Positions 22,029 to 61,332 of a stretch of DNA of 64,000 nucleotides are shown piece after piece. The notes beneath the pieces are model-generated. The model worked only from the letters and a program-made list of their open reading frames with translations. It was not told where the DNA came from and made no database searches. Numbering within the stretch: position 1 is the first letter of the stretch; each line of letters starts with the position of its first letter. The translations under genes and the position numbers were made by a program. The DNA is from an uncultured Actinomycetes bacterium (GTDB taxonomy: Bacteria; Actinomycetota; Acidimicrobiia; IMCC26256; PALSA-610), in contig CAWEUJ010000004.1 in the NCBI GenBank assembly GCA_963812205.1, positions 984,496 through 1,048,495 of the forward strand. Reading direction: 5' to 3'.

Positions 22029-22046
22029 GTGACAGTGTAGTGTCAC
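22029..22046. promoter_or_regulatory. cluster operator motif, copy 1: GTGACA GTGTAG TGTCAC
   Basis: Inverted repeat in the divergent gap between the SDR (-) and the TauD-relic/SDR/ligase unit (+). Confidence 0.7.
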
Positions 22047-22101
22047 GTTACGGTGCGGCTCGATAACGGTCAAGGCGCGGGCCGCCGACAGGAGAACAAC
22101 A

Positions 22102-22356
22102 ATGGCTGCAGCCTCGCAACTCGAGGCCCGCGAACTAACGCCGGAGTTCGGTGCCGAGATCGTCGGACTTGAACCGAAGCAGCCGCTCGATTCTGAGACG
22201 GGCGAGTTCCTTCGATACCTGTTCGACCAGCGCGGTCTACAGCATGCGCGCCCGAACGTCCTCAACGATGGCCCGACGCGTACGCTGCGGAAGGTGGCGT
22301 TCCCTCTTCCCAAGCTCAACCGCGACGAGCTTCCGTCCTACAGCCGCGCCGAATGA
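22102..22356 (+). pseudogene. TauD/TfdA dioxygenase relic with an in-frame internal deletion (84-aa mini-ORF)
   Basis: The first ~42 aa (LEARELTPEFGAEIVGLEP...LFDQRGL) align with the N-termini of the intact paralogs at 48818 and 49696. The last ~40 aa (QHARPNVLNDGPTRTLRKVAFPLP...) align with their C-termini. The HxD...H core is absent. The stop overlaps the next start (ATGA at 22353-22356). Confidence 0.6.
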
Positions 22357-23135
22357 ATCCGTTCACCCTGAAAGGGAAAGTCGCGTTGGTTACCGGAGGC
22401 GGGCGCGGCATCGGCGCGACGATCGCGCGCGTGTTCGCCGAGGCCGGAGCTTCTGTCGCGGTCGCGGCCCGCACCGCCGATCAAGTTGCATCGGTCGCTC
22501 ACGAAATCACGTCGGCCGGCGGTCGCGCGATCGCTCTGACGGCGGACCTGTCCGACGCGGATCAGCTTCCCGATGTGATTCAGCGAACCGTTGGCGAACT
22601 TGGTGGTCTCGACGTGCTCGTGAACAATGCGGGCGGGGGAACCTCGCCCCCCTTCGTCGACACCCGTATCGAGCAGCTGGAGGCCGCGTTCCATATGAAC
22701 GTCGCGGTGCCGTTCGAGTTGGCACGGCTCGCGCTCCCGCATCTGCTCGAGCGGCCGGGCGCGTCGATTCTCAACATGAGCTCGATGGGCGCGCGTAAGG
22801 CAGCGCGGGGGAACCTCGCGTACCACGTTGCGAAGGCTTCGCTGGCGCACATGACGCGCCTCATGGCCGCCGATCTCGGGCCCCGCGTGCGCGTCAACGC
22901 GCTCCTCCCCGGTGCGATCGAAACCGCGGCGCTGGGAGGGGTTCTCGAGGCCCGGCCTCAGCTCCGGGAGCTGCTCATCGAGCACACGCGTATGCGCCGC
23001 ATCGGCGCTCCGAGCGACGTCGCGTATGCGGCACTGTATCTCGCTTCCGATGCTGCGTCATGGGTCACGGGTGTCCTCTTCGACATCAACGGCGGCGAGG
23101 TCGACGAACTCATGGCGTCGCAACCCGACCTCTGA
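22353..23135 (+). CDS. short-chain dehydrogenase/reductase (FabG-like SDR)
   Basis: Motifs are TGGGRGIGAT, NNAG, and S...YHVAK. Confidence 0.85.
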   Translation: MNPFTLKGKVALVTGGGRGIGATIARVFAEAGASVAVAARTADQVASVAHEITSAGGRAIALTADLSDADQLPDVIQRTVGELGGLDVLVNNAGGGTSPPFVDTRIEQLEAAFHMNVAVPFELARLALPHLLERPGASILNMSSMGARKAARGNLAYHVAKASLAHMTRLMAADLGPRVRVNALLPGAIETAALGGVLEARPQLRELLIEHTRMRRIGAPSDVAYAALYLASDAASWVTGVLFDINGGEVDELMASQPDL

Positions 23136-23149
23136 TACGCCCATCTGAC

Positions 23150-24727
23150 ATGACGACGATTCCGACGCTTCTCCGCAGCAGCGCGGCGCGGTTCGGAGGG
23201 CGCGACTACATCGTTACCTCCGAGCGTCGGCTCAGCTTCGCCGAAGCCGAGCTGCAATCCCGTCGACTTGCGAAACGGCTACTGAAGGCGGGCGTCGGCA
23301 AGGGCACGCGCGTCGGGATGGTGTTCCCCCAGGGGCCCGACTTCGTCGTGGCCTTTCTCGCAATCACGCGCATCGGAGCGCTCGCGGTTCCGCTGAGTAC
23401 GTTCTTTCGTGCGTCCGAGCTACGTCGCGCGGTAAGGCACGCGGACGCGCACGTGCTGCTCGCCTCGCGCGGCGCGGAAGCGTTGTTCGAGTCGACGTGG
23501 GCAGAACTGCCGAGCGCACTGGACGCCGAACTGTTTCTGAACAGCGCTCCGTACTTGCGACAGGTCTGGATCTGCGGGGGCGGCAGTGATCGCGCCTGGG
23601 CGATCGACACGCCCGACTTCACGCAGCTCGAAGACGAGAACGCGATCAGTGACGCCTTGTTGGAAGCGATCGAATCCGAGGTCACTCCCGCCGACGCCAT
23701 CGTCATGGTTCATACGTCGGGCGCGACGGCCGAACCGAAGGCCGTCGTGCACACGCACGGCGCGCAGGTTCGGCACGGTCGAGCGATGGCCGCGCTCCAC
23801 GGCGTCACCGACGAGACACGCAGCTTCACGACGATGCCCTTCTTCTGGGTCGGAGGACTCACGGTGATACTCCTGAGTCATCTCCATGCCGGTGCAACCG
23901 TCATCACGATCGAACGCGCCGACGCATCGCTGATGCTCGACCTCATCGAGAAGACGCATCCGACGCGGCTCATCGGATGGACGTTGGTCGAACGCATCAT
24001 GGCGGATCCGGCATTTGCTGATCGAGATCTCACGTGGCTGCTTCCCCTGCAGATTCCTTCGATGCTCGCGCCGGGACGGCGTCACAACTCCCTCGGGATG
24101 ACCGAGACCTCCGGGCCGCACACGGGAGTGCCATATCCCGAGAACACGGCCGATTTGCCGGAACGCCTGCGCGGGTCGTTCGGCGCGCCGCTGGCGGGCA
24201 TTCGACACAAGATCGTGAACCCTGAGACAGGATCGATCGTGGCGGAAGGCGACGAGGGCGAGATCTGCGTGCGTGGCTACAGCCTCATGGACGGGCTGTA
24301 TAAGAAAGAGCGCGGCGACACGTTCGACGTCGACGGCTGGTACCACACCGGTGACCGCGGTTTCTTTCGCGATGGGCTCTTGTTCTTCACGGGTCGACGG
24401 TCAGAGATGATCAAGACGGGTGGCGCGAACGTCTCGCCGCGCGAGGTGGAAGCGGCACTGGAGGCGTTGGCAGAAGTGAAGGCGGCGTTCGTCGTCGGGG
24501 TGCCGGACGATGAGCGGGGCGAGATCGTCGGCGCCGTGGTGTGTCCGGAGCCGGGGTGTCGGCTCGACCCGGCGGCGTTGACCGAACGACTGCGCGCTGA
24601 TTTGTCGAGCTACAAGCTTCCGAAGCGCATCGTCGTCGTGCCGTATGACGATGCGCCGTGGTTGGCGTCTGGCAAGATCAGCAAGCCTCGCATCGGTGAG
24701 TTGCTCCTGAGTGAAGCCGACGAATGA
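23150..24727 (+). CDS. acyl-CoA synthetase / AMP-dependent ligase
   Basis: Start at the internal ATG 23150 (MTTIPTLLRSSAARFG). The AMP-binding core is VHTSGATAEPKAV, with YHTGDRG and KTGGANVSP, and a C-terminal SGKISK lysine. Confidence 0.85.
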   Translation: MTTIPTLLRSSAARFGGRDYIVTSERRLSFAEAELQSRRLAKRLLKAGVGKGTRVGMVFPQGPDFVVAFLAITRIGALAVPLSTFFRASELRRAVRHADAHVLLASRGAEALFESTWAELPSALDAELFLNSAPYLRQVWICGGGSDRAWAIDTPDFTQLEDENAISDALLEAIESEVTPADAIVMVHTSGATAEPKAVVHTHGAQVRHGRAMAALHGVTDETRSFTTMPFFWVGGLTVILLSHLHAGATVITIERADASLMLDLIEKTHPTRLIGWTLVERIMADPAFADRDLTWLLPLQIPSMLAPGRRHNSLGMTETSGPHTGVPYPENTADLPERLRGSFGAPLAGIRHKIVNPETGSIVAEGDEGEICVRGYSLMDGLYKKERGDTFDVDGWYHTGDRGFFRDGLLFFTGRRSEMIKTGGANVSPREVEAALEALAEVKAAFVVGVPDDERGEIVGAVVCPEPGCRLDPAALTERLRADLSSYKLPKRIVVVPYDDAPWLASGKISKPRIGELLLSEADE

Positions 24728-24771
24728 CGCCGGATCCCTGGTTTGCCGTCGCGGACGCACTTCTGTAGATT

Positions 24772-24789
24772 CTGACAGTGATCTGCCAC
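24772..24789. promoter_or_regulatory. cluster operator motif, copy 2: CTGACA GTGATC TGCCAC
   Basis: It lies 24 nt upstream of ATG 24813. A TAnnnT hexamer, TAGATT (24766-24771), abuts its left edge. Confidence 0.7.
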
Positions 24790-24812
24790 AATTGCCCCGC
24801 GAGGAGCGCCGC

Positions 24813-26162
24813 ATGACCGTGACCGCCAACGACCGGGGATCTTCCTCTGCCGCCACTTCAGAGCCCTACGTCATCGTCTCGTGCGACACGCACATCGGTC
24901 CGCGTCTCGAGCAGGAACTCAGGCCGTACTGCCCCAAGGAACTGCTCGACGACTTCGATGCGTTCGCCGCCGGCATCCAGCAGAAGCGGGAGGCGGCGGC
25001 CGCCCGGCGCAAGAAACTCTCGTTCGGGGGCAACGACAACATCGGCGACGACTGGGGCGTGCGCTTCACCAACCTCGAAACCGAGGGCCACTACGACATG
25101 CACGCGCGCATACGCGATCTCGACAACGACGGCGTCGCGGCCGAGGTGATGTTCCACGACAGCCAGAACGGCGAGCCGATTCCGTTCCAGACCGAATCGA
25201 TCCTGATGCGCGGCGCCGATACCCGCGGCCAGGACTTCAATCTGCTCCGCGCCGGGCAACGCATGTACAACCAGTGGCTGGCCGACGTGTGCTCGATCGA
25301 ACCCGAGCGCCACATCGGGCTGATGCACCTGCCGATGTGGGACATCGACGCCGCAGTCGAAGAACTCACGTGGGCGCGCTCGCAGGGTTTGAAAGGCGTC
25401 AACTTCCCATCGCCGAAGCCGTACCTCACGCCGTACAACGACCCGGCATGGGAGCCGTTCTGGTCGGCGTGCGAAGACTTCGGCGTGACCTTCTGCAACC
25501 ACGGCGGCGCGGGCTCGAGCGGTGGCATGGGCCCCGGCGCGATGTCGATCGCGAAGTACGAGATCTCGATGATGGCGCGGATCTGCCCCATGGACCTCCT
25601 CATCTTCGGCGGCGTGTTCGAGCGGCACCCGAAGCTGCGCCTCGTGACGACCGAGTCGCCGGGCTTGTGGTGGAACTTCGTGCTCCAAGAGATGGACAGC
25701 ATCTATCTCACCGACACGCACAGCTACGGCCCCTCGGAGAAGCAGCGCGTTCCGCGCATGCCGAGCGAGTACGCGCGGGAGCAGGTGTTCATCGGTGCAA
25801 GCTTCCAGGCTCGCTTCGAGGCCGAGGACGCGATCGCGCAGGACTACGTCGACCGGATCATCTGGGGTTCCGACTACCCCCACTTCGAGGGCACCTACCA
25901 GAAGGACGCGACCGGTCCCAACGGCGAACCCATGACCTGGGCGTCGTTGCGTTTCACATACGCCGGGTTGCCGTCCGACGAAGTGGCGCGCATGCTCGGC
26001 AAGAACGCGATGAACGCGTACGACCTCGACTATGACGCGCTGAGGCAGGTGTCGGCGCGTATCAACGCGCCGAGCTACGACGACCTCAACGCGGAGAAGG
26101 TGGAGGCGCGCCCGAAGGACTCCGGCCACCTTGCGTTCCGCACGTTCGGCTTCTGGGCTTGA
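24813..26162 (+). CDS. amidohydrolase-2 (PF04909-like, ACMSD/LigI/LigW superfamily) metal-dependent hydrolase/decarboxylase
   Basis: ATG 24813 follows GAGGAG. The N-terminal metal ligand region is VSCDTHIGP and the C-terminal region is IIWGSDYPHFEG. 449 aa. Confidence 0.8.
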   Translation: MTVTANDRGSSSAATSEPYVIVSCDTHIGPRLEQELRPYCPKELLDDFDAFAAGIQQKREAAAARRKKLSFGGNDNIGDDWGVRFTNLETEGHYDMHARIRDLDNDGVAAEVMFHDSQNGEPIPFQTESILMRGADTRGQDFNLLRAGQRMYNQWLADVCSIEPERHIGLMHLPMWDIDAAVEELTWARSQGLKGVNFPSPKPYLTPYNDPAWEPFWSACEDFGVTFCNHGGAGSSGGMGPGAMSIAKYEISMMARICPMDLLIFGGVFERHPKLRLVTTESPGLWWNFVLQEMDSIYLTDTHSYGPSEKQRVPRMPSEYAREQVFIGASFQARFEAEDAIAQDYVDRIIWGSDYPHFEGTYQKDATGPNGEPMTWASLRFTYAGLPSDEVARMLGKNAMNAYDLDYDALRQVSARINAPSYDDLNAEKVEARPKDSGHLAFRTFGFWA

Positions 26163-26368
26163 ACCCGACGGTTCGGACACTCCGTCACGGGCGCCCGCGA
26201 TACGCCATCCAACAACTAAGGAAACCGGGGCAATGACGACCGAGTCGGTGCCGATGCGAGGTGACAGATCAACCCTGGTCGCTGTTCCTCGGCGGTCGGA
26301 AGAGCGATGCGACGCTCGAGGCCCGAGTTCGAGCGACCGGGCCAAGGTGTTCACGAAGGGCGCGCGTC

Positions 26369-28156
26369 ATGGGGGCTGACGGATTCGACTTCGATCCCGT
26401 CGCACTCAAGAAGAAGTACGACGAGGAGCGCGACAAGCGGCGGGCGATGCGGCCAGAAGGTCTCGCCCAGTTCCGCTCGATGACTGGCGAGCTCGAGCAC
26501 TACGCCGAAGACCCGTACACCCCCGTCGAGGAGCGAGCCCCGAAGCGGGTCGAGACCGATGTCGTGATCGTCGGCGGCGGGTTTGCCGGGATGCTCGCGG
26601 CGGCGCGCCTGACGAAGGAGGGCATCGACGACTTCCTCGTCCTCGAGCGCGGCGGAGATTTCGGGGGCACGTGGTACTGGAACCGCTACCCGGGTGCGGC
26701 ATGCGACGTCGAGTCGTACATCTACCTGCCCCTCCTCGAGGAGGTCGGCACGGTCCCCTCCATGAAGTACGTGTTCCAGCCGGAGATCTTCGCGCACTGC
26801 CAGGCCTTCGGTCGGACCTTCGACTTGTATCGGCGAGCGCTGTTCCACACCCGTGTTATCGACGCTCGCTTCGACGAGGCGACGTTCCGGTGGGTCATGA
26901 AGACCGACCGCGGCGACGAGCTGCACGCGCGGTTCGTCATCGTGGCCTCCGGCCACTACCGGGAGCCGAAGCTGCCGGGCATCCCCGGCATCGAGACCTT
27001 CTCCGGCCACAGCTTCCATACGAGCCGCTGGGACTACGACTACACGGGCGGCGCCCCGGGCGAGCCGATGGTCGGCCTCCGCGACAAGGCCGTCGGGATC
27101 GTCGGCACCGGTGCGACCGGAATCCAGTGCATCCCGCAGCTGGCGAAGGACGCCGGGCACCTCTACGTCTTCCAGCGCACGCCGTCGTCGGTCGACGTCC
27201 GGGCCAATGCACCCACTGATGTCGAGTGGTTCAAGTCCCAGCCGCCGGGTTGGCAGCAGGAGCGGATGGAGAACTTCGTCGCGCACTACCGCGGCACCGA
27301 CCCGGTCGATCTCATCCAGGACGGTTGGAGCCAGCTCATACACGGGATACAACGGCGAGCGAAGCCCGACATGACTGCGGAGGAGATGGCCGACCTGCTG
27401 CAGATGGTGGACTTCGAGATCATGGAGCGCATCCGCAAGCGGGCCGAGACCGTGGTGCGCGACCCGAAGACCGCCGAGGCGCTCAAGCCTTGGTACAACT
27501 GGCTGTGCAAGCGCCCGTGCTTCCACGACGAGTACCTCGAGGTGTTCAACCAGGACAACGTCACGCTGGTCGACACCGAGGGCCGAGGCATCGACCGCAT
27601 CAGCGGCAACGTCATCGTCGCCAACGGCGAGGAGTTCGAGCTCGACCTGTTGATCTTCGCCACGGGGTTCGAGTTGTCCCCGTACGAGGAAGGTTCCCCG
27701 CTCCCGGTGACCGGCCATGATGGTCGCACGCTGGCCGAGAAGTGGAAGGAGGGAGCCACCACGCTGCACGGCCAGCACGTGCACGGCTTTCCGAACCTGA
27801 TGCTGTCGACGACGCGCCAGGCCTCGTGGGAGAACAACTTCCCCTTCTCGCAGGACGTTGTGGCCACCCACCTCGCCAAGTTGATCCGCCACGCCCTGGA
27901 CGATGGCGTCGCGACCTTCGAGGTCACGGCGGAGGCGGAGGCGGAATGGGTCAGCTTCCATGAGGAGAAGAGCCGGCCGTCGCACGCGCGGTGGAAGGAG
28001 TGCACGCCGAGCTACTTCAACCAGGAGGGAAGCGGCGACGACCAGCGCATCCTGCGAAACGGCGGATTCGGCGGCTCGATCATCGAGCTGCGCGACATCC
28101 TCGCGGCGTGGCGGGAGGAGGGCATGCCCGGCCTGACGATGACGAGCGAGGCATGA
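26369..28156 (+). CDS. type I Baeyer-Villiger monooxygenase (FAD/NADPH, cyclohexanone-monooxygenase family)
   Basis: The first dinucleotide fold is VVIVGGGFAGM, the BVMO fingerprint is FSGHSFHTSRWD (FxGxxxHxxxWD), and the second fold is VGIVGTGATG. 595 aa. Confidence 0.85.
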   Translation: MGADGFDFDPVALKKKYDEERDKRRAMRPEGLAQFRSMTGELEHYAEDPYTPVEERAPKRVETDVVIVGGGFAGMLAAARLTKEGIDDFLVLERGGDFGGTWYWNRYPGAACDVESYIYLPLLEEVGTVPSMKYVFQPEIFAHCQAFGRTFDLYRRALFHTRVIDARFDEATFRWVMKTDRGDELHARFVIVASGHYREPKLPGIPGIETFSGHSFHTSRWDYDYTGGAPGEPMVGLRDKAVGIVGTGATGIQCIPQLAKDAGHLYVFQRTPSSVDVRANAPTDVEWFKSQPPGWQQERMENFVAHYRGTDPVDLIQDGWSQLIHGIQRRAKPDMTAEEMADLLQMVDFEIMERIRKRAETVVRDPKTAEALKPWYNWLCKRPCFHDEYLEVFNQDNVTLVDTEGRGIDRISGNVIVANGEEFELDLLIFATGFELSPYEEGSPLPVTGHDGRTLAEKWKEGATTLHGQHVHGFPNLMLSTTRQASWENNFPFSQDVVATHLAKLIRHALDDGVATFEVTAEAEAEWVSFHEEKSRPSHARWKECTPSYFNQEGSGDDQRILRNGGFGGSIIELRDILAAWREEGMPGLTMTSEA

Positions 28157-28995: not shown

Positions 28996-29025
28996 GGTCG
29001 ACCCTTCCCTGCCGAGAGGAACGCC

Positions 29026-29790: not shown

Positions 29791-29951
29791 ACGATCCGTC
29801 GGGGCCGACGGTCTTCGAGGAGTACACGTGTGAACTCGAAGGCGGCGCGGTCCTTGCCTCGGCTGCACACGTACCCGGACTGCGCTGCGAGCGTCTGCTC
29901 GCGGGCGAGACTCCGCGCCGGTGGACGTTGTCGTGAGCCAGCCGTTATTAT

Positions 29952-29969
29952 CTGACACTGGAGTGTCAC
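29952..29969. promoter_or_regulatory. cluster operator motif, copy 3: CTGACA CTGGAG TGTCAC
   Basis: It lies 23 nt upstream of GTG 29992. A TATTAT hexamer (29946-29951) abuts its left edge. Confidence 0.7.
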
Positions 29970-29991
29970 TTTTTTCGAGAGGGATGAGGGT

Positions 29992-31194: not shown

Positions 31195-31260
31195 CCGACG
31201 ATCCGAGCTGGACGAGCCGCGTGGCTACCGAAACGCAATCGAAGGCGTAAGGAACGTTCG

Positions 31261-32454: not shown

Positions 32455-32464
32455 GGGAGCGGCG

Positions 32465-32710
32465 TTGTCCGAGCACCGGCCACTCGAGAACAAGGTGGCG
32501 CTGATCACCGGCGCGAGCCGGGGCATCGGAAAGGGCCGTGCGCTCAGCTTCGCTGAGGCGGGTGCCGACCTGTTGCCGACGGTTCGCTCCATGGATGATC
32601 TCGAGAGGACCGCGAGACTGCGGCTGGCGAACTATCTCGGTCGCGGCGACTACACTGCCCCCGAACAAGCCGCGCTCAGAGCTTCGAGGAACCTTGCGTC
32701 GAGCGGATGA
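32465..32710 (+). pseudogene. SDR N-terminal stub (truncated relic)
   Basis: It reads LENKVALITGASRGIGKGRALSFAEAGADL...DDLERTA, which is the Rossmann start of an SDR. The rest is missing, and the ORF runs into the 3' end of the convergent thioesterase gene. Confidence 0.5.
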
Positions 32711-34455: not shown

Positions 34456-34473
34456 CTGACAGTAGGTTGCCAC
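34456..34473. promoter_or_regulatory. cluster operator motif, copy 4: CTGACA GTAGGT TGCCAC
   Basis: It lies in the 75-bp divergent gap between the two crotonase genes: 11 nt from ATG 34445 (-) and 48 nt from ATG 34521 (+). Confidence 0.7.
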
Positions 34474-37937: not shown

Positions 37938-38035
37938 ACCAAGGTCTGCTGGAACGAGATCGGTATCGCTCGCCACTGCCCCAGATGTGAACCAGCCTGA
38001 CACTGAGCTTGACGCTATACGAGGTCGGCCATATC

Positions 38036-38053
38036 GTGACAGTTGAGTGTCAC
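38036..38053. promoter_or_regulatory. cluster operator motif, copy 5: GTGACA GTTGAG TGTCAC
   Basis: It lies in the divergent gap between etfBA (-) and an amidohydrolase (+). It is preceded by TTGACG (38008-38013), 17-18 nt, then TATCGT. Confidence 0.7.
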
Positions 38054-38081: not shown

Positions 38082-39353
38082 GTGGAGGAGCAGCGGCGCC
38101 AGGTCGTCATCTCGACCGACGGCCACGCGGGCGCCGACCTGTGGGACTACAAGCCTTACCTCGAGAGCCGGTACCACGAGCAGTTCGACGCTTGGGCAAG
38201 CACTTTCCACGACGCGTGGGCCGAGGACACCGATCAGGCGCGCCCGTTGAATCACCGGCTTGGAGTCGCGTCGGCGACCGCGCCGCTCAACTGGGATGCC
38301 GAGATGCGTCTCGAGTACCTCGACGGTCAGGGCATCGCCGCCGAAGTGCTCTTCCCGAATACCGCGCCGCCGTTCTACCCGTCGGGCGCCCTTACGTCGC
38401 CGGGCCCGCGTTCGAGCGAGGAGTTCGAACTGCGATTCGCGGGACTGCGCGCCCACAACCGCTGGATCGCCGATTTCTGCAGTGAGGCGCCGAACCGATG
38501 GGCCGGGTTCGCGCAGGTCTTTCTCGATGACATCGACGCCGCGGTGGCAGAAGTTCGGTGGGCGAAGGAAGCGGGCCTCCGGGGCGTTCTCCTCCCGAGC
38601 GACCACGTGCTGAAGATGGCGAACCTGTATTACCCGCACCTCGACCCGCTGTGGGCCGCTTGTGCGGAGGTGGAACTGCCCGTGCATCGACACGCGAGCT
38701 TCCCGACCGAGTCCGTGCGCGACGGTGGGAACGCGTCGGCACTTATCGGTATGCTCGAAACGCAGTTCTACATCCTCCGTTCGATAGGGCACATGATCTT
38801 GTCGGGTGCGTTCGAACGCCACCCGGACCTGATGTTTGTCATCACTGAGATCACCGCCGCGTCGGAAATCCCCGCCTATCTCATGCGGCTCGACGGCATG
38901 GCGGGGATGGGCCTCGGCGCGGGCACGCCGCTCTACGAGCACATCAAGGATGCGGCCGCTGCACTGCACCGCAAACCGAGCGAGTACTTCGCGACGAATT
39001 GCTACGTCGCGGGTCCGACTCACGATCTTCGCGCCGCCTTCGATCTCGGAACGCCGAACATCATGTGGGGTGCAGACGTTCCGCACGCCGAAGGCACGAG
39101 CCCCTTCACGCTCGAGGTTCTACGAACGACGATGCACGACCTCCCGGACACGGACATCACCGCATTGCTCTCGACCCGCGCGGCCGACGTCTACGGTTTC
39201 GACCTCGATGCGTTGCAAGCGGTGGCCGACCGGATCGGGCCGACGCTCGAGGAGATCAAGACGCCGCTCCCGCCGGAGCAGCGCCCGCGCTTTCCCGAAG
39301 ACACGCGGTGCACAGTCTTCCTGGATCGCACGGCGATGGCCGGCTCCCGGTGA
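38082..39353 (+). CDS. amidohydrolase-2 (PF04909-like) family protein
   Basis: GTG 38082 follows GCGAGG. Motifs are VVISTDGHAG, FPNT and a C-terminal IMWGADVPHAEG. The tracked start at 38043 lies inside the operator. Confidence 0.8.
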   Translation: MEEQRRQVVISTDGHAGADLWDYKPYLESRYHEQFDAWASTFHDAWAEDTDQARPLNHRLGVASATAPLNWDAEMRLEYLDGQGIAAEVLFPNTAPPFYPSGALTSPGPRSSEEFELRFAGLRAHNRWIADFCSEAPNRWAGFAQVFLDDIDAAVAEVRWAKEAGLRGVLLPSDHVLKMANLYYPHLDPLWAACAEVELPVHRHASFPTESVRDGGNASALIGMLETQFYILRSIGHMILSGAFERHPDLMFVITEITAASEIPAYLMRLDGMAGMGLGAGTPLYEHIKDAAAALHRKPSEYFATNCYVAGPTHDLRAAFDLGTPNIMWGADVPHAEGTSPFTLEVLRTTMHDLPDTDITALLSTRAADVYGFDLDALQAVADRIGPTLEEIKTPLPPEQRPRFPEDTRCTVFLDRTAMAGSR

Positions 39354-39367: not shown

Positions 39368-39385
39368 GTGGCAGACGACTGTCAT
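39368..39385. promoter_or_regulatory. cluster operator motif, copy 6: GTGGCA GACGAC TGTCAT (reverse complement ATGACA GTCGTC TGCCAC)
   Basis: It lies 42 nt upstream of ATG 39427, at the head of a ten-gene unit. Confidence 0.65.
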
Positions 39386-45639: not shown

Positions 45640-47954
45640 CGTTCGCTGCGCGCTTCGTCGGCCAGCGCGTCGCGCGCCACGAAGACGCTCGTCTTGTCAC
45701 GGGCCGCGGTCGTTATGTCGACGACATCAAGGTGCCGAGGACGCTGCACGCTGCGTTCGCCCGCAGCGACGTCGCGCGCGGTCGGATCGTCTCGGTCGAC
45801 ACCGCCGCGGCGGCCGCGGTGCCCGGCGTGCGCGCGGTGTTCGTGGCATCGGATTTGAACCCTCTGGTGCACGACCACCGGGTCGACGACGAGCCGCCGG
45901 GTCGCGAGCGGCCATTCCGTCTGCTCGCCGACGGTGACGTCCGCTACGTCGGCGAGCCGATCGCGATAGTGGTTGCCGATTCGAGATACCACGCCGAGGA
46001 CGCGCTCGAAGCGATTGTCATCGACATCGAGGCAGAAGAACCGGTGCTCGTTGCTGAGCGAGCGCTCGAACCTGACGCCGCGGTCGTGCATCCGACCATG
46101 GAATCGAATCTGTACAACGAGATACCGAGCGCGCCGAATCCCGAGCTCGATGATGTGCTGGCGTCGGCGCCGGTGGTACTGACCGAGACCTTCGCTCAGC
46201 ACCGCTATCTCACGGTGCCGATGGAGACGCGCGGCATCCTCGCTGACTGGGATGCGAATCGCGACGAGCTCACGATTTGGATTTCGACGCAGGGCCCGCA
46301 CGGTGCTCGCGGCCAGATGGCGCGGCTCCTCGGTCTCGACGACAGCCAGGTGCGGGTGATCATGCCCGACGTCGGCGGCGCGTTCGGCTTGAAGATGCAG
46401 CCGGGGCGGGAGGAGATGGCGACTGTTCTCGCGACGAAGGTCTTGGGTCGGCCAGTGAAGTGGATCCAAGACCGCCGCGAAAATCTCACTGCCGACGAGC
46501 ATGCGCGCGACGACCGCGCCACGGTCACGATGGCCGCCGATCGGGACGGCACATTGCTCGGGGCGAAGGTCGAGTTCCTCGAGGTCGCGGGTGCGTTCCC
46601 GAGCGCGGGTGCGAGCGCGGCCGTGTTCACGACGGTCCTGTTCCCGGGCCCGTACCGTATTCCGGCCTACAGCGGGTCGGCCCAGACCGTCTTCACGAAC
46701 ACATCAGGCCGCGGTGCCTATCGGGGTCCGTGGATGATCGAGACCGTCGCGCGAGAACTCATGGTCGACTGTGTGGCGCGTCAACTCGGCATAGATCCGT
46801 TGGAGCTCCGCCGCCGGAACGTCATCCGCGACGAAGACCTGCCCTATGCGATGCCGACCGGCATGGTCTACGACCAGATCAGCGCCGCCGCAACGCTCGA
46901 ACAGGCGGCCGAAAAGATCGGCTACGACGAGTTTCGTGCACGCCAACGGGAGTGGCGTGCCGAGGGCCGCCTCGTCGGGCTCGGCATGAGCCTGCTTGTC
47001 GAGCCGTCCGCCATCTCGTTCGGGTTCATGAGCACCGACGCCGCGACTGTTCGTATCAGCCCAAATGGAAGAGTCGACGTCGCGCACACCGGGGCCAGCC
47101 ATGGACAGAGTCTCGAGACCACGATCGCGCAAGTCGTCGCCGACGAACTCGGTGTGGATGTCGGCCAAGTGCGCGTCGTGCAGGGCGACACCGACAGCAC
47201 GCCATTCGGGCCCGGCACCGGCGGAAGCCGGAGTGCGGTGATCCTCAGCGGTGCGGCGCGCAACGCCGCACGCGAGGTGCGTGACCGGATGCTGGCAATC
47301 GTCGCGCACCAGCTCGAAGCGTCGGAGGCAGACCTCGTTCTTGAGGACGGTCGGGTGTACGTCGCGGGGACTCCTTCGAGCGCCATGACAATCACCGAGA
47401 TCGCGCACCAGGCCTACTCTGCGCCGGCAGCGTTGCCTCCGGGTCTGCCACTGGGCCTCGAAGCGCAGGTGCGATGGGCGCCGGACTCGTTCGTCACTTG
47501 GTCGAACGCTTGCCATATATGCACCTGCGAGATCGATCCCGCGACCGGAGCGGTTGACATCATGCGATATGTCGTCAGCGAGGATTGCGGCATCATGATC
47601 AACCCGAACGTTGTCGAGGGTCAGATCGCCGGCGGAGTCGTGCAGGGAATCGGCGGCGTGCTGTACGAGCACATGCCGTATGACGATGCCGGAAACCCGC
47701 TCGCAGGCACATTCATGGACTACTTGCTTCCGACCGCAGTCGAAGCGCCCGAGATCGAATACGGACACATCGAGACGCCTGCGCCGTCGAATCCGGGTGG
47801 CCACAAGGGGCTCGGTGAAGGCGGAGCGATCGCGTCGCCGCCCGCAGTCGTCAATGCGATTGCGGATGCACTTGCGCCGCTCGGTGTCGCCGTGCGTTCG
47901 CAACCGCTCGGTCCCAGCGACATCGTCGCGCTACTGGAGATTGCGGGCCGGTGA
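45636..47954 (+). CDS. molybdenum hydroxylase large subunit (molybdopterin-binding, CoxL/XdhB-type; not form I CODH)
   Basis: 772 aa. Motifs are GGAFGLK, GRGAYRGPW (generic AYRG rather than the AYxCSFR of CO dehydrogenase) and GLGEGGAIASPPAV. Confidence 0.9.
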   Translation: MTFAARFVGQRVARHEDARLVTGRGRYVDDIKVPRTLHAAFARSDVARGRIVSVDTAAAAAVPGVRAVFVASDLNPLVHDHRVDDEPPGRERPFRLLADGDVRYVGEPIAIVVADSRYHAEDALEAIVIDIEAEEPVLVAERALEPDAAVVHPTMESNLYNEIPSAPNPELDDVLASAPVVLTETFAQHRYLTVPMETRGILADWDANRDELTIWISTQGPHGARGQMARLLGLDDSQVRVIMPDVGGAFGLKMQPGREEMATVLATKVLGRPVKWIQDRRENLTADEHARDDRATVTMAADRDGTLLGAKVEFLEVAGAFPSAGASAAVFTTVLFPGPYRIPAYSGSAQTVFTNTSGRGAYRGPWMIETVARELMVDCVARQLGIDPLELRRRNVIRDEDLPYAMPTGMVYDQISAAATLEQAAEKIGYDEFRARQREWRAEGRLVGLGMSLLVEPSAISFGFMSTDAATVRISPNGRVDVAHTGASHGQSLETTIAQVVADELGVDVGQVRVVQGDTDSTPFGPGTGGSRSAVILSGAARNAAREVRDRMLAIVAHQLEASEADLVLEDGRVYVAGTPSSAMTITEIAHQAYSAPAALPPGLPLGLEAQVRWAPDSFVTWSNACHICTCEIDPATGAVDIMRYVVSEDCGIMINPNVVEGQIAGGVVQGIGGVLYEHMPYDDAGNPLAGTFMDYLLPTAVEAPEIEYGHIETPAPSNPGGHKGLGEGGAIASPPAVVNAIADALAPLGVAVRSQPLGPSDIVALLEIAGR

Positions 47955-48136
47955 CCGACGCGCCAGTCGAGTTCCAGTATGTGTTGCGGTGTCCCTGCGG
48001 CGCGACGCTCACGGGAGATACCGAAGACGAGATCGTCGACGTCTCATTCGCCCACCTACGCGAGAATCATCCCGACCTCGCCGACGAATACGAACGTGAA
48101 CACATCTTGTTCATGGCCGTGAAGCTCCGGAAATAG
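47951..48136 (+). CDS. DUF1059-like small metal-binding protein
   Basis: 61 aa with GTGA overlap with the large-subunit stop. It shows the pattern CPCG...TEDEIV...HLRENHP. Confidence 0.55.
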   Translation: MTDAPVEFQYVLRCPCGATLTGDTEDEIVDVSFAHLRENHPDLADEYEREHILFMAVKLRK

Positions 48137-50577: not shown

Positions 50578-50578
50578 A

Positions 50579-51569: not shown

Positions 51570-51572
51570 CGT

Positions 51573-54592: not shown

Positions 54593-54648
54593 GCGATCCC
54601 CTTTCCGGTCGTGGCCGTGCTCGGCATCCTACGGCGGCCGGACGTGAA

Positions 54649-54666
54649 GTGACAGTCCTCTGCCAC
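54649..54666. promoter_or_regulatory. cluster operator motif, copy 8: GTGACA GTCCTC TGCCAC
   Basis: It lies in the divergent gap: 14 nt before GTG 54680 (+) and 57 nt from ATG 54592 (-). Confidence 0.7.
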
Positions 54667-54679
54667 TAGTCTCGGCGGC

Positions 54680-55870: not shown

Positions 55871-55880
55871 GAGCGCGTGA

Positions 55881-57008
55881 ATGAGCCTGACCAGTGCCGA
55901 GCGAGACGAGCTTCGCTCGACCGCGCGCGACCTGCTGGGCCGGGAGAATGTGCGCACCTCCGTGGCCGAGGCGCGCGGGTTCGATCGCGATCTGTGGCGT
56001 CAGATGGTGGAGCTGGGCTGGACCACGATCCATGTGCCCGAAGGGCTCGGCGGCGCGGGGTGCGGGTACGCCGACGTCGCCGTCGTTCTCCACGAGATGG
56101 GCCGCGCCGTGACGTCTTCGCCGTTTCTCGCGAGCGCGGTGCTCGCGACCAGCGCGCTGTTGCTCGCGGCTCCCGACGGTGGGGCCCACGAGCAGCTCGG
56201 CGCGCTCGTCAGAGGCGACGCGATCGGGACCGTCGCGCTCGCGAGCTCTGACGGTTCCTACGAGCTGTCACGGGTGACGACAACCTGGCGGTCGTCGGGC
56301 GCGTCGGTCCGCCTCACGGGCGCATCCGGATTCGTGCTCGATGCCGACCTCGCCGACGTCCTGATCGTGACTGCGCTCGACGGCGACGGAACCGTTGCCC
56401 TCTTCGCGGTCGACGGTCGCGCGCCGGGCGTCCGAATTGAACGAGCCCCGACGGTTGACCAAACCCGACGCCTCTTCAGCGTGACGTTCGACGACGTTGA
56501 GGTCGCGACCGAGCGCATGCTCTGCGACCCGGGTCGACAAACTGAAGAGCTGCTCGACGACGTGCTCTCCATCGGCGCCATCGCGTCGTCGTGCGACGCG
56601 GTCGGCGTCGCGGAGCGGGCACTCGACGGCGCGGCCGAGTATGCCAAGACACGTGTGCAGTTCGGCAAGCCGATCGGATCGTTTCAGGCCGTGAAGCACC
56701 ACTGCGCCAACATGGCCATCGCGGTCGAGGCAAGCCGGGCCGCGGTACGCGGCGCGACGGAGGCACTTGATGGCGACCGCGCGGACTGGGCGCGGAACGC
56801 GGCAGCAACCGCGTCCTACGTGGGGCCTGCGTGCTCCCACGCGTGTTCGCTCGCATTGCTCGTCCACGGCGGCATCGGATTCACATGGGAACACGAGTCG
56901 CACCTCTATCTGAAACGGGCGAAACTCGACGAAGTGTTGTTCGGCACGCCGTCGTGGCATCGTCGCCGCCTCGCCGACGCCGTCTTTCCCGCCTTGGCGG
57001 CGTCGTGA
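55881..57008 (+). CDS. acyl-CoA dehydrogenase-family protein (beta-type, C-terminal GGTxEIxRN motif absent)
   Basis: 375 aa with the ACAD fold (TRVQFGKPIGSFQAVKHHCANM). The C-terminus reads LFGTPSWHRRRLADAVF. Confidence 0.8.
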   Translation: MSLTSAERDELRSTARDLLGRENVRTSVAEARGFDRDLWRQMVELGWTTIHVPEGLGGAGCGYADVAVVLHEMGRAVTSSPFLASAVLATSALLLAAPDGGAHEQLGALVRGDAIGTVALASSDGSYELSRVTTTWRSSGASVRLTGASGFVLDADLADVLIVTALDGDGTVALFAVDGRAPGVRIERAPTVDQTRRLFSVTFDDVEVATERMLCDPGRQTEELLDDVLSIGAIASSCDAVGVAERALDGAAEYAKTRVQFGKPIGSFQAVKHHCANMAIAVEASRAAVRGATEALDGDRADWARNAAATASYVGPACSHACSLALLVHGGIGFTWEHESHLYLKRAKLDEVLFGTPSWHRRRLADAVFPALAAS

Positions 57009-58220
57009 CAAAGCACACGCCGCGCGAGCTGAACGAAGCAACGATGGTCGAGGTCCGTCGCCGCATCGGTATCCCGGTGCGCTACTCGCCTCGCCAGCAC
57101 AACGAGGCGTCGTCGACAGACTCGTTCCGTCACTTCGCGCTCGCGTACGGCGACGACAACCCGCTCTACATCGACCCGGCATACGCGCAGCGGTCGTCGT
57201 GGGGGTCGTCGATCGCGCCGCCGCTGTATCCGTTTACAGCCGGCGTCGCCCGGCCGGTCCAGCTCTCGGACGACGAAAAGGCGCTGATGAAGTCCGGCGA
57301 TCCGCTGGCCGGCATCGGTCAGTACATGTGCGGCGAGCGCTGGTTGTTCCCGAAACCGATCCGTGCCGGCGACGTCTTGTGGCAGACGCAGACGCTGCAC
57401 TCCGCCGATCTGCGGCCGAGTTCGTTCGGCGGCGGGACGGGTGCGCTCGTCTCGCACCGGGTCAGCTGGGAGGACGACCGCGGCGCGCCGTACGCGTTGC
57501 GGTTCCTCGATTTCTGGCACGCGGATCGCGAGAAGTCGAACGCGGCGGGCAAGAACCGCACCATTGAGCGCCCGTACTACACCGCGGACGACCTGGCACG
57601 CATCGACGCGTGCTACGAGGCCGAGGAGGTACGCGGCGCGCAGCCGCGGCTCGCGAGCGAAGTGCAAGTCGACGACCCGCTCGGCCCGATCGCGAAGGGA
57701 CCCACGAGCGTGACCGACATGGTGGCGTGGCACGCTGGTGTCGGCTGGGGAATGTACGGCGGCGGCGCGTCGAAGGTGGCGTACAAGAACCGCAAGCGGA
57801 TTCCGAAGTTCTACACGGCGAACGACCTCGGCTTCTGGGACTCGGCCCAGCGGTGCCACTGGGACGACGCGTGGGCGCAGCGCATGGGCCACCCTGGCGC
57901 TTACGACTACGGCGTCATGCGTTCGAACTGGATGGTTCATCTCGTGACCAACTGGATGGGTGACAACGCGTGGATCTGGAAGATGTCCGCATCCGTCCGC
58001 AAGTTCAACTACCTCGGCGACATGCATTTCATGTCGGGTGTCGTTCGGGAGGTCGACAAGGCGGGGGACACCGTCACGGTGGACGTGTGGGGCAAGAATC
58101 GAGCGCGGCGAAACCACCTGTGACGGGCGCATTGTCGTGATCCTTCCGCCCGCGAGTGGCGGCCACGCCATCATTCCCGAATACGACGATTCGCAGGTTC
58201 CGAAAGCGTCGGCGCCGTGA
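57005..58220 (+). pseudogene. MaoC-like double hot-dog (R)-specific enoyl-CoA hydratase, +1 frameshift near 58089-58102
   Basis: GTGA overlap with the ACAD stop. The body runs to ...DTVTVDVWGKN in one frame. The conserved end (I)ERGETTCDGRIVVILPPASGG...* continues in the +1 frame and stops at 58218-58220, overlapping the next GTG. Confidence 0.7.
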
Positions 58221-60364
58221 GCGATCACGCACGACGGGCCGAGTTCCTCACCGGCGTCAGTGTGCTCGAGCTCGGCGACGGTGTGGCCGGCGCGGCTGCC
58301 GCCAACATCCTCTGGTCACTCGGCGCGAATGTCACGACCGTGATCGACGGCTCAAGTCCGCACCGTCGTGCGCGGCCGCGTGTGCTTCGCGCCGGCGCCG
58401 AGGTGAGCTTGCTCTCCATCGTTCTCGACCGCGGCAAACACTGCGCTCGCACGCTCGACGATGTTGACGTCTCGGCGTACGATGTCGTGCTCTTCGACCG
58501 GGTAATTGGGCCGCGCGGTGCGCTTGCGTCGTTCGCCGATCGCGACGCGTACCTCGAATACGTCGCGCGTCATAACCGGAGCGCCTGGATAACGGTCAGC
58601 GCGTTCGGTCTGACTGGCCCACGTGCAGGCGACGCCGCAACGGAGCTCACCGTCGCCGCGGCCGGCGGCATGCTCTCTGCCGTGCGCGACGAGCGCACGG
58701 GCCAGCCACTCAAGCTCGGCGGTCAGCAGTCGCTCCTCAACACCGGCCAAGCCGCGGCGCTTGCCGCGTGCCACGCGATCGATCTCGCCGCGGGTGATGA
58801 ACCGGTGCACCTTGATCTGTCAGCGGTCGAGGCGACCGTGGCGATGGGTCCGGTGCTCGAGGTCGGTGGCCTGCTCCTGAACACAGGCAGTCTCGGCGGC
58901 GCGAAACGTTATGGCGCGCCGGCTTCCTTCTACGAGTGCACCGACGGACTCATCCGCATCTCGGCAATGGAAGACCACCAGTGGCAAGGGGTGGTCACAG
59001 CCATGGGATCGCCGGAATGGGCGGACAAGTTCGCGACGGTTCAGGCTCGCATTGATGCCACCGACGACGTCGACGAGTACGTCTCCGCCTGGGCCCGCAC
59101 GCGTTCCAAGGGGGATGCAGAGGCGGTTCTGCAGGCGAACGGTGTTCCCGCTACCGCGGTGTACTCGCCGGAGGAAATCCTTGCGTCGCCGCAGCTCGCG
59201 CACCGCGATGCCTTCGAACCGATTGCGATTGGTGACGGGCGCGAAGCGAAGGTCGTCGGCTTGCCGTTTCGCATCGTCGACCGCGGAACGACCGTACGCC
59301 GCCGGGCGCTTTCGGGATTGCGCATGCTGGAAGCGAGTCGGGTTCTCGCAGTTCCGCTCGCGGGCGCCATGCTCGGCGCCTTGGGTGTCGAGGTGACGAA
59401 GCTCGAGGATCTTCCGCGTCTCGACATGTACCGGCGTCGCGGTCCGTACATCGACGGTGAGGCGGGCATGGAGCGGTCGGCGTACTTCGCACTCATGAAC
59501 CACTCCAAGCGGAGCGCGGCGTTCGATATCGACGCCGACCGCTCGCGCCTCGACGCGATGCTCGACGCAACCGACGTGGTGATCGAGAATCTCGGACCCA
59601 AGCGCGCCGGTGCGTTGGAGCTTGGCGCGACGACCGCGTTGGCGCGACACCCCGACCTGCTGGCGGTGACCTCTTCGGGCTTCGGGCTCGATGGTCCGCA
59701 CGCGCGCTACCGCGCCTATGCATACAACCTGCAAGCGTCGTGCGGGCTTGGCTACCTCACGCGTAACCAAGAGGGCGAGAGCGCCGAGATCGACATCGCA
59801 TGGGCCGACCTCATCGCTGCGTACTCCCTTGCGACGATCATCGCCGCCTGGGCCGTCGGGCCGGAGGGCAACGCGGGCGCAGGCGTCGACTTCGCGATGG
59901 CCGACCTCGTTGTGGCTCACTTCAACGACTGTGTCGCGGCAGCCAGCCTCGATCCTGAATCCGACGCCTCGGTCGATCGGGCAAACGAGCTGACGCCCTA
60001 CGCGCCGTGCGGCGTCTATCCGACGCTCGATGGATGGATCGCGATTTCGGTCGATGACGACGAGCATCTTCGGCAGCTCACGAAGGTCTTGGGTGCCGAT
60101 GCGACCTCCGACGCGCAGATCGCGGACGCGACGCGTGGGCGTCACGCATCAGACCTCGCGGGAGAGTTGCGTGAGGTTGGCGTGCTGGCTGAACGCGTGC
60201 TCGACGCCGCCGACCTGCTCGCCAGCGAACAGCTCACCGCGCGCGAGTTCTTCGTGCCGGTCGAGCATGCCGAGTGGGGGCGCCGAGGTCTTGTCGGCCT
60301 GCCCTGGCGGCCTCTCGGCGAAGCACCATTTCCGCTCGGCACACCGCCGCATCTCACGCAATAG
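58217..60364 (+). CDS. double-domain family III (CaiB/BaiF) CoA-transferase
   Basis: 715 aa. Domain 1 is VSVLELGDGVAGAAAANILWSLGANV and domain 2 is LRMLEASRVLAVPLAGAMLGALGVEVTKLE, with ...TPYAPCGVYPTLDGWIAISV. Confidence 0.8.
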   Translation: MSDHARRAEFLTGVSVLELGDGVAGAAAANILWSLGANVTTVIDGSSPHRRARPRVLRAGAEVSLLSIVLDRGKHCARTLDDVDVSAYDVVLFDRVIGPRGALASFADRDAYLEYVARHNRSAWITVSAFGLTGPRAGDAATELTVAAAGGMLSAVRDERTGQPLKLGGQQSLLNTGQAAALAACHAIDLAAGDEPVHLDLSAVEATVAMGPVLEVGGLLLNTGSLGGAKRYGAPASFYECTDGLIRISAMEDHQWQGVVTAMGSPEWADKFATVQARIDATDDVDEYVSAWARTRSKGDAEAVLQANGVPATAVYSPEEILASPQLAHRDAFEPIAIGDGREAKVVGLPFRIVDRGTTVRRRALSGLRMLEASRVLAVPLAGAMLGALGVEVTKLEDLPRLDMYRRRGPYIDGEAGMERSAYFALMNHSKRSAAFDIDADRSRLDAMLDATDVVIENLGPKRAGALELGATTALARHPDLLAVTSSGFGLDGPHARYRAYAYNLQASCGLGYLTRNQEGESAEIDIAWADLIAAYSLATIIAAWAVGPEGNAGAGVDFAMADLVVAHFNDCVAAASLDPESDASVDRANELTPYAPCGVYPTLDGWIAISVDDDEHLRQLTKVLGADATSDAQIADATRGRHASDLAGELREVGVLAERVLDAADLLASEQLTAREFFVPVEHAEWGRRGLVGLPWRPLGEAPFPLGTPPHLTQ

Positions 60365-60376
60365 GAGAGGAAACAG

Positions 60377-61304
60377 ATGGGGACGCTCGAGGGGAAATCC
60401 GTCGTGATTACGGGCGGTGGTCGGGGCCTCGGACGCGCGACTGCGATTGCCGCCGCCGCGGAGGGCGCGCAGGTCGTCGTCGCCGACTACGGCGGCGAGC
60501 TCGATCAGCGCGCAGGGGCGTCGTCCGCCGCGGCTGACGAGGTCGTGTCCGAGATCACCGCCACTGGCGGCCGAGCGATCGCAGCCGCGGAGGATGTGTC
60601 GACGATGGACGGTGGCCGGCGCATCGTGCAGGCCGCGATCGATGCGTTCGGCCGTCTCGACGGAATGGTGTGCTTCGCGGGCATCACCGTCATGAAGTAT
60701 CTCTGGGAACTCGAAGAACACGAGTGGGACGACGTCCTCGCGGTGCACCTCAAGGGCCATTTCAGCTCGCGCGCAAGCTGCCGCGCGCGTGATGATGCCG
60801 CAAGGCGCGGGCAGTCTCGTGTTCATCGGCAGCGGCGCGATGAATGGCACGCCCAACATGCCCAGCTACGCGACCGCGAAGGCGGGCATCCTGGGGCTGA
60901 CATGGAGCACCGCGTACGCGCTGGCCGAATACGGCATCACGACGAACTGTGTCGTTCCCAGTGCGGCGACGCGCATGTCCGACAGCATTTACGGCACCGC
61001 GGAGATGTTGAGTGATCAGGTCGGCGAGACGATTCGCAGCGATCTCGCCGCCGGTACCTACCGAGATCCGGCCAACGTCGCGCCGATCGTGCTCTACCTC
61101 CTGAGCGACGCGGCGCGACGTGTCAACGGCCAGGTGTTCCGCGCCCAGGGGTACGAGGTCGCACACCTCGGAGGTCTCGTGTGGGACAAGGTCATGAAGA
61201 ACGAGGGACCGTGGGACGTTGCCACGATCGAGGCGCGGCTTCCCGAAGAACTTGGTCCCACGCTCACACTTCGGCCGGTCCCGTGGCCGGAGCGGCCGCG
61301 ATGA
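60377..61304 (+). pseudogene. SDR of the MFE-2/Hsd4A type, +1 frameshift near 60754-60763
   Basis: The N-terminus is VVITGGGRGLGRATAIAAAAEGAQVVVADYGG to ...AVHLKGH. It then continues in the +1 frame as SARAQAAARVMMPQGAGSLVFIGSGAMNG...YATAKAG to stop 61302-61304. Confidence 0.75.
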
Positions 61305-61314
61305 GCTACCTTTT

Positions 61315-61332
61315 GTGACAGTGGACTGTCGG
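61315..61332. promoter_or_regulatory. cluster operator motif, copy 9: GTGACA GTGGAC TGTCGG
   Basis: It lies 8 nt upstream of ATG 61340. The right half-site has one mismatch. Confidence 0.6.

Follow-up and report, generated by a model that had tools for sequence, protein, structure and literature searches.

Which protein reads a short palindrome that recurs from promoter to promoter along a large catabolic gene cluster? The question is raised by a 64,000-nucleotide (nt) stretch of contig CAWEUJ010000004.1 from an uncultured actinomycete; we call the whole of this stretch the window. An initial annotation had listed nine copies of an 18-bp inverted repeat with the core TGRCA-N6-TGYCA ahead of the transcription units of a 43-kb cluster, and had found no regulator gene inside that cluster. 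Follow-up analysis shows that the palindrome is a real, conserved element on the promoters of a degradation gene cluster of about 50 kb. From the placement of the copies, their conservation and the genes that accompany them, we consider it likely that they are operators of one homodimeric TetR-family repressor that would control the whole catabolic island.

All nine of the 18-mers listed at the outset lie where they were placed and read as they were given; eight match the core exactly and the ninth, at 61315, carries one mismatch, as had been recognized. Nine as a total did not stand, as the window contains ten strong copies and one weak one, and a copy at 19028 had been missed (Table 1). Exact matches to TGRCA-N6-TGYCA number nine in the 64-kb window against 0.08 expected, and none of 100 dinucleotide-preserving shuffles yields nine. 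Eight of these matches belong to the sites first listed, and the remaining one is at 19029-19044. A symmetrised 26-nt position weight matrix (PWM) built from ten sites was then run over the entire window, on either strand and through coding and non-coding sequence alike. The scores are bimodal: ten strong sites fall between 21.6 and 32.7 bits, the copy at 18938 reaches 16.4 bits, the next match scores 11.1 bits (47960), and the remainder do not exceed 5.6 bits. The status of the 18938 copy as a degenerate tenth candidate was thus upheld, its score being above background, and by pattern and PWM alike the strong sites occur only in promoter gaps. Across 376 kb of more distant related loci, used as a control, the PWM maximum was 11.6 bits.

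The PWM consensus, wwww-sTGRCAGT-nn-AsTGYCAs-ww, extends beyond the core first described, with A/T-rich flanks and an inner spacer that is itself partly symmetric (CAGT-nn-ACTG or AGTG). The half-sites TGRCA and TGYCA lie 6 nt apart in dyad symmetry, with symmetrised counts of 19 to 20 out of 20 at the eight non-degenerate core positions and a 14:6 split at the R and Y positions. The 5-nt cores are perfectly complementary in just three of the ten sites. In four sites TGACA faces TGCCA, a frequent pairing that points to a constraint on the half-site sequence rather than on base pairing. A literature search for the motif string returned no match.

With curated start codons, non-coding DNA makes up 4.2% of positions 14062 to 64000 and holds all 11 sites, in keeping with the non-coding placement claimed for them. 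Four of those starts (19064, 24813, 34445 and 50628) were set downstream of the start of the longest open reading frame (ORF) by means of Pfam coordinates, ortholog alignments and ribosome-binding-site positions, and the non-coding call for the sites at these four is not fully independent of the sites themselves. A copy is present in each of the six divergent gaps and in none of the five convergent gaps, and four more sites stand ahead of co-directional genes; the element does mark essentially every promoter region, as had been proposed.

The position of the sites relative to promoters is informative. The distance from site center to the downstream plus-strand start codon is 16.5 to 40.5 nt in six sites, which is too close for a class II activator bound at -41.5 or further upstream. 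Among 29 strong sites from the window and its relatives, 24 have a hexamer of the form nAnnnT that overlaps or abuts the promoter-proximal edge, and 12 of these 24 also have a -35 element matching at least four of six positions at a distance of 16 to 18 nt. An independent promoter scan of 18.8 to 38.7 kb made four calls, three of them attached to sites (19028, 29952 and 38036); at 29952 and 38036 the -10 precedes the site (calls at 29922-29951 and 38009-38037). The arrangement CTTGAC(A/G)-17/18-TAwTsT, with the -10 at site positions -3 to +2, is conserved between the window copy at 38036 and L019, L020, L021 and L040 to L045 (L numbers denote contigs from relatives). Since the -10 of these sigma70-type promoters overlaps or abuts the site, this geometry indicates a putative repressor operator overlapping the core promoter. 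The initial annotation had reached the same proposal from the hexamers TAGATT at 24766 and TATTAT at 29946 and from TTGACG-17-TATCGT at 38009-38037. All of these are present, and an operator over the -10 or the transcription start is now supported by sequence-level and comparative evidence.

Conservation was assessed in two sets of relatives. The closest genomes were Acidimicrobiaceae metagenome-assembled genomes (MAGs), whose amidohydrolase is 65% identical, and homologs in public records are named Acidimicrobiales; the loci of these MAGs contain neither the motif nor any other recurring palindrome. A metagenome scan with the amidohydrolase at 38094-39353 as the query retrieved closer relatives (69 to 91% identical). 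Sites of at least 18 bits are present in six contigs (76 to 91% identity), with orthologous positions in L019, L020, L021, L022 and L029, and orthologous-position sites are found in L040 and L041 as well. Upstream of the amidohydrolase, the alignment of L019, L020 and L021 retains just the CTTGAC -35, the -10 and the 18-mer, and the -10 varies among the orthologs (TATCGT, TATTGT, TATTCT and TAATCT). Similarly, ahead of the gene that starts at about 24813, a run of 26 nt, TATAGATTCTGACAGTGATCTGCCAC, which includes TAGATT and the 24772 site, is identical in L019 while its flanks have diverged. The copy at 29952 is conserved in L019 (at 5328) and the copy at 39368 in L019, L029 and L022. The copy at 54649 has an orthologous site in L040 (at 1954, 20.3 bits) and that at 61315 one in L041 (at 15446). 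The latter sequence is identical in Logan contig L001, and comparable sites precede an operon containing an enoyl-CoA hydratase (ECH) gene in L043 (14310), L042 (16915) and L040 (7800). Footprinting of orthologous clusters, the comparison on which the initial annotation had staked its claim, thus finds sites conserved while the flanks diverge.

Two of these contigs show site turnover and rearrangement. L020 lacks the 39368 copy, its two amidohydrolase genes being separated by just a 27-nt gap (1653-1681) with no operator. In L029 (1-2568), the first amidohydrolase is 5'-truncated, with only residues 207-417 present, and two weak motif-like sequences of about 15 bits each lie upstream, at 1409 and 1436.

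None of the ORFs tested from 14 to 64 kb showed a helix-turn-helix (HTH) domain with Pfam, in agreement with the earlier statement that 21 to 64 kb holds no HTH gene. That the regulon should lack a regulator gene, however, is most likely an effect of the window's edge: the window ends inside the cluster, and in relatives a TetR gene follows. This emerged from homologs of the acyl-CoA dehydrogenase (ACAD) at 62110-63330, with P0001 100% identical to the window ACAD, and from their gene neighborhoods. In eight related contigs the ACAD, an AMP-ligase and usually a CoA-transferase gene are followed, on the other strand, by a TetR gene; in L045, a ninth TetR context, the genes on that side are ordered differently. 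The TetR gene is divergent from a DLH/PrpD/aconitase-X/PrpD/Amidohydro_3 operon, and in L042 and L043 from a gene for a ParB/StrR-like HTH protein instead. In all six contexts with DNA, the top-scoring site of the locus sits in the TetR gap, always after CTTGAC(A/G)-17/18-TAwTsT, which is the layout that the initial annotation had suggested seeking past nt 64000. L041 and L029 are one contig, the closest relative. By this shared gene order, the regulator gene most likely lies about 1 to 3 kb past the window end.

A homolog search with the relatives' TetR led to P0162, a protein of 195 residues that we infer to be the ortholog in the source genome. Its HTH, TTTEEIAERxGVSPRTFFRYFxTKESVLF, is near-invariant among the five orthologs retrieved. 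P0162 carries PF00440, to which the orthologs add a mostly weak match to PF17754 (TetR_C_14). The best curated match of P0162 is MftR (TIGR03968), over the full length (E = 9e-20, 71.1 bits; 74.4 bits for P0232). These scores are below the cutoff of 224.9, making P0162 MftR-like rather than an MftR equivalog. No close solved structure for the TetR was found.

MftR is a TetR-family protein of the TetR_C_14 type (MSMEG_1420 in Mycobacterium smegmatis, Rv0691c in M. tuberculosis). Its operator, footprinted with DNase in M. smegmatis, reads TCCATTC-TGGCA-CTCGA-TGCCA-TATAT, with the palindrome T-N2-GGCA-N5-TGCC-N2-A; there is one footprinted operator, Omft, at -79 to -53 from the mftA start, and long-chain acyl-CoAs release the protein from DNA (PMC8728441). 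The assertion that the motif is unlike the known operators of lipid regulons is accordingly not quite right, as the MftR operator TGGCA-N5-TGCCA shares the half-site (PMC8728441). The common half-sites (GRCA/TGYC) and A/T-rich flanks support the assignment to an MftR-like TetR and suggest an acyl-CoA effector, and a repressor released by acyl-CoA suits a pathway of CoA thioesters. The two systems also differ. MftR has an N5 spacer, whereas the spacer here is N6 in all sites and R is mostly A (TGACA); further, MftR has that single footprinted operator, whereas here at least 10 putative ones lie on the -10 and transcription start over more than 50 kb. No mycofactocin (mft-type) genes occur in any TetR context, where the neighbors are CoA-transferase, AMP-ligase, DLH, PrpD and aconitase-X genes.

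In the mechanism that we propose, the repressor would be the MftR-like TetR (PF00440 plus PF17754), and its dimer, once bound, would keep RNA polymerase from the -10 and the start of transcription. The mutase and ACAD promoters would be exceptions, with the dimer lying over the -35 and spacer there. The same TetR would also regulate the divergent DLH/PrpD/aconitase-X operon and probably its own gene, the best operator being in the gap that the two share. By analogy with MftR and other lipid-related TetR proteins, an acyl-CoA intermediate of the pathway may release the TetR from DNA.

Several observations weigh against this interpretation. Clusters with an amidohydrolase of about 65 to 75% identity lack the motif; these loci stop short of the TetR region. 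Neither a convincing -10 nor a convincing -35 is seen at 39368, 61315 or 34456 (plus strand). The N5 rather than N6 spacer of MftR suggests that the likeness of the operators reflects kinship and does not identify the binder. P0162 is 59 to 72% identical to the TetRs of the relatives, compared with 80 to 94% for the enzymes, and the presumed adjacency of P0162 to this cluster rests on synteny.

Other DNA-binding proteins must be weighed against an MftR-like TetR. The palindrome could be bound by an unlinked transcription factor, for example a dimer of the CRP/FNR, IclR, GntR or MarR type, with the TetR merely a member of the regulon. Indeed, the 5-6-5 geometry is that of CRP/GlxR sites (TGTGA-N6-TCACA), and the assignment of the TetR to this DNA rests on sequence context. 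The half-site here is TGACA and not TGTGA, however; the window and the related loci showed no gene for a cNMP-binding or CRP protein, and overlap with the -10 speaks against CRP-type activation. In six of six contexts examined the TetR gene goes with the motif, as no other DNA-binding gene does, the strongest site is always in its own divergent gap, the classical autoregulatory layout of TetR genes, and its closest characterized relative, MftR, binds the same half-site. Taken with these points, an unlinked factor appears improbable.

Less probable still is that the ParB/StrR-like HTH protein reads the palindrome as a pathway-specific regulator and the TetR controls only that regulator. This protein of about 315 to 345 residues has an N-terminal ParB/sulfiredoxin-like motif, VVDGxHRVAAA, and a central HTH, with no NCBIfam match and faint Pfam HTH matches. 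Its gene always neighbors a TetR gene or sits just ahead of the amidohydrolase gene: it immediately precedes the amidohydrolase ortholog in L022, L024, L025, L026 and L028, and it forms a divergent pair with the MftR-like TetR gene in L042 and L043, where the best site lies right before it. Yet strong sites occur without this gene in the window, L019, L040, L044, L045 and the sampled part (about 64% of 51.9 kb) of L029/L041, whereas L023, L026 and L028 have the gene and no site of 12 bits or more. Sites over the -10 and transcription start are also unlike those of an activator, and StrR-family sites have longer repeats and an 11-nt spacer. The ParB/StrR-like protein looks more like a member of the regulon than like its binder. 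We give equally little credence to a broader version in which it reads the palindrome alone or jointly with the TetR, the window organism having a rewired, TetR-only version or supplying the factor in trans. If it were true, a ParB-fold and possibly nucleotide-switched regulator would be in charge of a large catabolic island, not of an antibiotic pathway.

It is very hard to credit that the palindromes are structural repeats (REP- or MITE-like) or RNA hairpins acting as terminators or attenuators and not protein sites: they are short inverted repeats confined to intergenic DNA, and the copy at 29953-29968, the only one with a T-run, resembles a terminator, but 3' ends in convergent gaps lack copies that every divergent gap has, seven of the ten cores are imperfectly complementary with stems of 5 to 6 bp, the register with the -35 and -10 is fixed across species, and no extended repeat unit surrounds the 18-mers.

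Returning to the proposed TetR-family repressor, its closest counterpart in architecture is KstR/KstR2 of cholesterol catabolism in mycobacteria and Rhodococcus, in which a TetR repressor binds a short palindrome ahead of many transcription units. Divergent promoters are frequent in KstR-type regulons, and the inducer is a CoA thioester or pathway intermediate. Here too, a single TetR would act at many operators, spread over a large catabolic cluster of lipid type. The half-sites, however, differ from the KstR (TnnAACnnGTTnnA) and KstR2 (AnCAAGnnCTTGnT) consensus sequences, P0162 reaches 24.1 bits where the KstR cutoff is 280, the host belongs to a different, Acidimicrobiia-type clade, and the genes are not those of the canonical steroid set. 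Bacillus FadR/YsiA, Thermus FadR and Pseudomonas PsrA are TetR dimers that sit on 14- to 18-bp palindromes over beta-oxidation promoters and are released by acyl-CoA. The regulated genes are alike (ACAD, ECH, electron transfer flavoprotein [ETF] and acyl-CoA ligase), whereas the half-sites are different and P0162 matches Bacillus FadR weakly (22.5 bits; cutoff, 200). We read the proposed mechanism as the standard TetR paradigm, a KstR-style cluster-wide regulon that is solid and not very surprising.

Two kinds of promoter element were considered and rejected as explanations of the motif. A sigma-54 promoter reads TGGCAC-N5-TTGCA; the GG-to-GC spacing of the motif is one off and the motif is symmetric, and actinobacteria are not known to have RpoN. 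Promoters of extracytoplasmic function (ECF) sigma factors do not fit half-sites that are 6 nt apart, not 16 to 17.

Other regulators in and near the locus were also set aside. The TetR genes at 3427-4059 (minus strand) and 5621-6211 (plus strand), which the initial annotation had noted as distant, were rejected as the regulator because no site above 1.3 bits lies anywhere in 1 to 14 kb. The second is divergent from a polyketide-cyclase/SRPBCC gene (5149-5766, minus strand), and the perfect 34-bp palindrome previously attributed to it is present at 5605-5638, over its predicted start at 5621. This palindrome, CCGTACCATCTGGTACA followed directly by TGTACCAGATGGTACGG (17 + 17 nt, no spacer), probably serves this second TetR as its operator and has no relation to the TGRCA motif. 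Outside the cluster, an ECF-type sigma factor (Sigma70_r2, r4) is encoded at 6976-7503 (minus strand), with an 8-nt overlap with a 244-residue ORF at 6249-6983 that has no Pfam match and may be an anti-sigma factor. A hidden regulator was also considered at 22102-22356, directly past the best-looking palindrome, and rejected: the 84 residues of this small ORF read as a TauD N terminus and have no Pfam HTH. In more distant relatives, a TetR_C_24 regulator resembling Bacillus FadR (L024:200-400, L025:780-940 and L028:1200-1480) forms a separate module, in which TTGACA-17-TTCAAT is followed by the regulator's own conserved PsrA-like palindrome, CAAAC-N4/5-GTTTG. The site beside it in L025 is probably fortuitous, because it overlaps the -35 of TTGACA-17-TTCAAT and is not conserved in L024 or L028.

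The cluster that the motif bounds is larger than the 43 kb first assigned to it. It starts near 14 kb, the gap between the ABC transporter and mutase genes contains two sites, and the cluster runs beyond 64 kb. By Pfam, it encodes a branched-chain-type ABC transporter, a B12-dependent acyl-CoA mutase, several short-chain dehydrogenases/reductases (SDRs), acyl-CoA ligases and five Amidohydro_2 proteins, a Baeyer-Villiger monooxygenase-like protein with a lactonase, a P450, ECHs, ETF and a thiolase-like protein with DUF35, a three-subunit Mo-hydroxylase, two TauD dioxygenases, family III CoA-transferases, ACAD pairs and a MaoC hydratase. Judged by this predicted gene content, it is a CoA-thioester-based catabolic island. 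Within the window, the island comprises at least 45 genes in about 12 to 14 transcription units; the window ends within an AMP-ligase gene, and the last complete gene is the ACAD at 62110-63330.

Table 1. Copies of the palindrome in the window, sites in the TetR gap of related contigs, and associated features. Positions are those of the window unless a contig is named.
Position	Strand	Feature	Context	Score or evidence
14062-64000		Regulated catabolic cluster	Continues past right window end	Pfam; GC ~65% vs ~70% left of 14 kb
18938-18955		Weak/degenerate operator copy, GCGTCAGTGGGCTGTCAA	Divergent gap of ABC-transporter binding protein and mutase, closer to binding-protein gene	16.4 bits; rank 11; above background of <=11 bits
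19028-19045		Putative operator copy, GTGACAGTCGTATGCCAA; not in initial list	Upstream of B12-dependent acyl-CoA mutase	Exact match; 26.1 bits
22029-22046		Putative operator copy	Divergent gap: SDR 21124-21966 (-) / TauD fragment and SDR from 22102 (+)	31.5 bits
24772-24789		Putative operator copy	Upstream of Amidohydro_2, start ~24813; -10-like TAGATT 24766-24771 abuts	29.0 bits
29952-29969		Putative operator copy	Upstream of P450, start 29992; -10-like TATTAT 29946-29951 abuts	32.4 bits; promoter call TGGACG-18-TATTAT
34456-34473		Putative operator copy	Divergent gap of two ECH genes (minus start ~34445, plus start 34521)	21.6 bits, lowest of ten
38009-38053	+	-35 TTGACG 38009-38014, 17 nt, -10 TATCGT 38032-38037, putative operator GTGACAGTTGAGTGTCAC 38036-38053	Upstream of Amidohydro_2 (start 38094), divergent from ETF genes	32.7 bits, top score in window; promoter scan
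39368-39385		Putative operator copy	Between first and second Amidohydro_2 genes of 38-42 kb operon	31.9 bits
50579-50596		Putative operator copy	Divergent gap: TauD (start codon 50577, -) / SDR (GTG 50628, +)	30.7 bits
54649-54666		Putative operator copy	Divergent gap: CoA-transferase (-) / ACAD operon (+); then TAGTCT 54667-54672, 7 nt before GTG 54680	27.3 bits
61315-61332		Putative operator copy, one core mismatch (TGTCG)	Upstream of ECH-ACAD-AMP-ligase operon	30.0 bits
L040; L041; L042; L043; L044; L045		Best site in TetR gap		32.1; 33.0; 31.0; 30.2; 34.4; 32.2 bits
L022:2-889; L024:384-1340; L025:919-1953; L026; L028; L042:8970-9911 (-); L043:8857-9891 (-)		ParB/StrR-like gene		

The individual sites differ in how they meet their promoters. 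The best-defined promoter-operator unit is the one at 38009-38053. At 19028, a -35-like hexamer coincides with the left half-site (GTGACA-18-TATGGT in the promoter scan, with TATGGT at 19052-19057), and an in-frame GTG of the mutase gene (19064) lies 6 nt past TATGGT. The edge of the 22029 site is overlapped by a minus-strand TTGACC-17-TAACGT. The 50579 site lies 1 nt from the TauD start, with a minus-strand TAGACT inside its spacer, 6 nt ahead of the ATG. The mutase (GTG 19064), TauD (ATG 50577, minus strand) and ACAD (GTG 54680) genes have a TAnnnT hexamer 6 to 7 nt before the start and no visible Shine-Dalgarno sequence, which suggests that their mRNAs may be leaderless (or, for the mutase, short-leader). 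The copy ahead of the P450 gene runs into CTTTTTT (29953-29978) and was flagged as a terminator-like hairpin with a T-run; it might also terminate the SDR operon that lies upstream. The sub-threshold sequence at 47960-47977, GCGCCAGTCGAGTTCCAG (11.1 bits), is found where the stop of the Mo-hydroxylase large-subunit gene meets a 61-residue ORF (47951-48136) that has a CxC motif and no Pfam match; it may be a decayed site or chance.

Composition changes at the left edge of the regulon, where GC falls from about 69 to 72% (1 to 14 kb) to about 63 to 69% (14 to 64 kb); this step near 14000 may mark an acquired island. A megablast search of 36 to 56 kb against annotated plasmids found no match. Several ORFs appear broken. 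Besides the TauD-like fragment at 22102-22356, there is an SDR N-terminal fragment of 81 residues at 32465-32710 and an EAL C-terminal fragment at 13568-13810, and an SDR is split in two overlapping frames (60377-61015 and 60789-61304) that correspond to a single SDR of 309 to 312 residues in relatives. These fragments and frameshifts (22102, 32465, 60377 and 13568) could be due to gene decay or assembly errors.

The motif serves as a regulon tag that bounds a large catabolic island in an uncultured soil and peat lineage of the Acidimicrobiia type. By this tag, the regulon would take in the 45 or more genes of the island in the window together with the DLH/PrpD/aconitase-X operon beyond it. 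The predicted repressor-operator pair of P0162 and the 18-mer could be used as a biosensor for the inducing metabolite, and thereby lead to the substrate of the pathway. For the MftR-like branch of the TetR family, the pair would add a second operator geometry, with the same half-site and N6 in place of N5.

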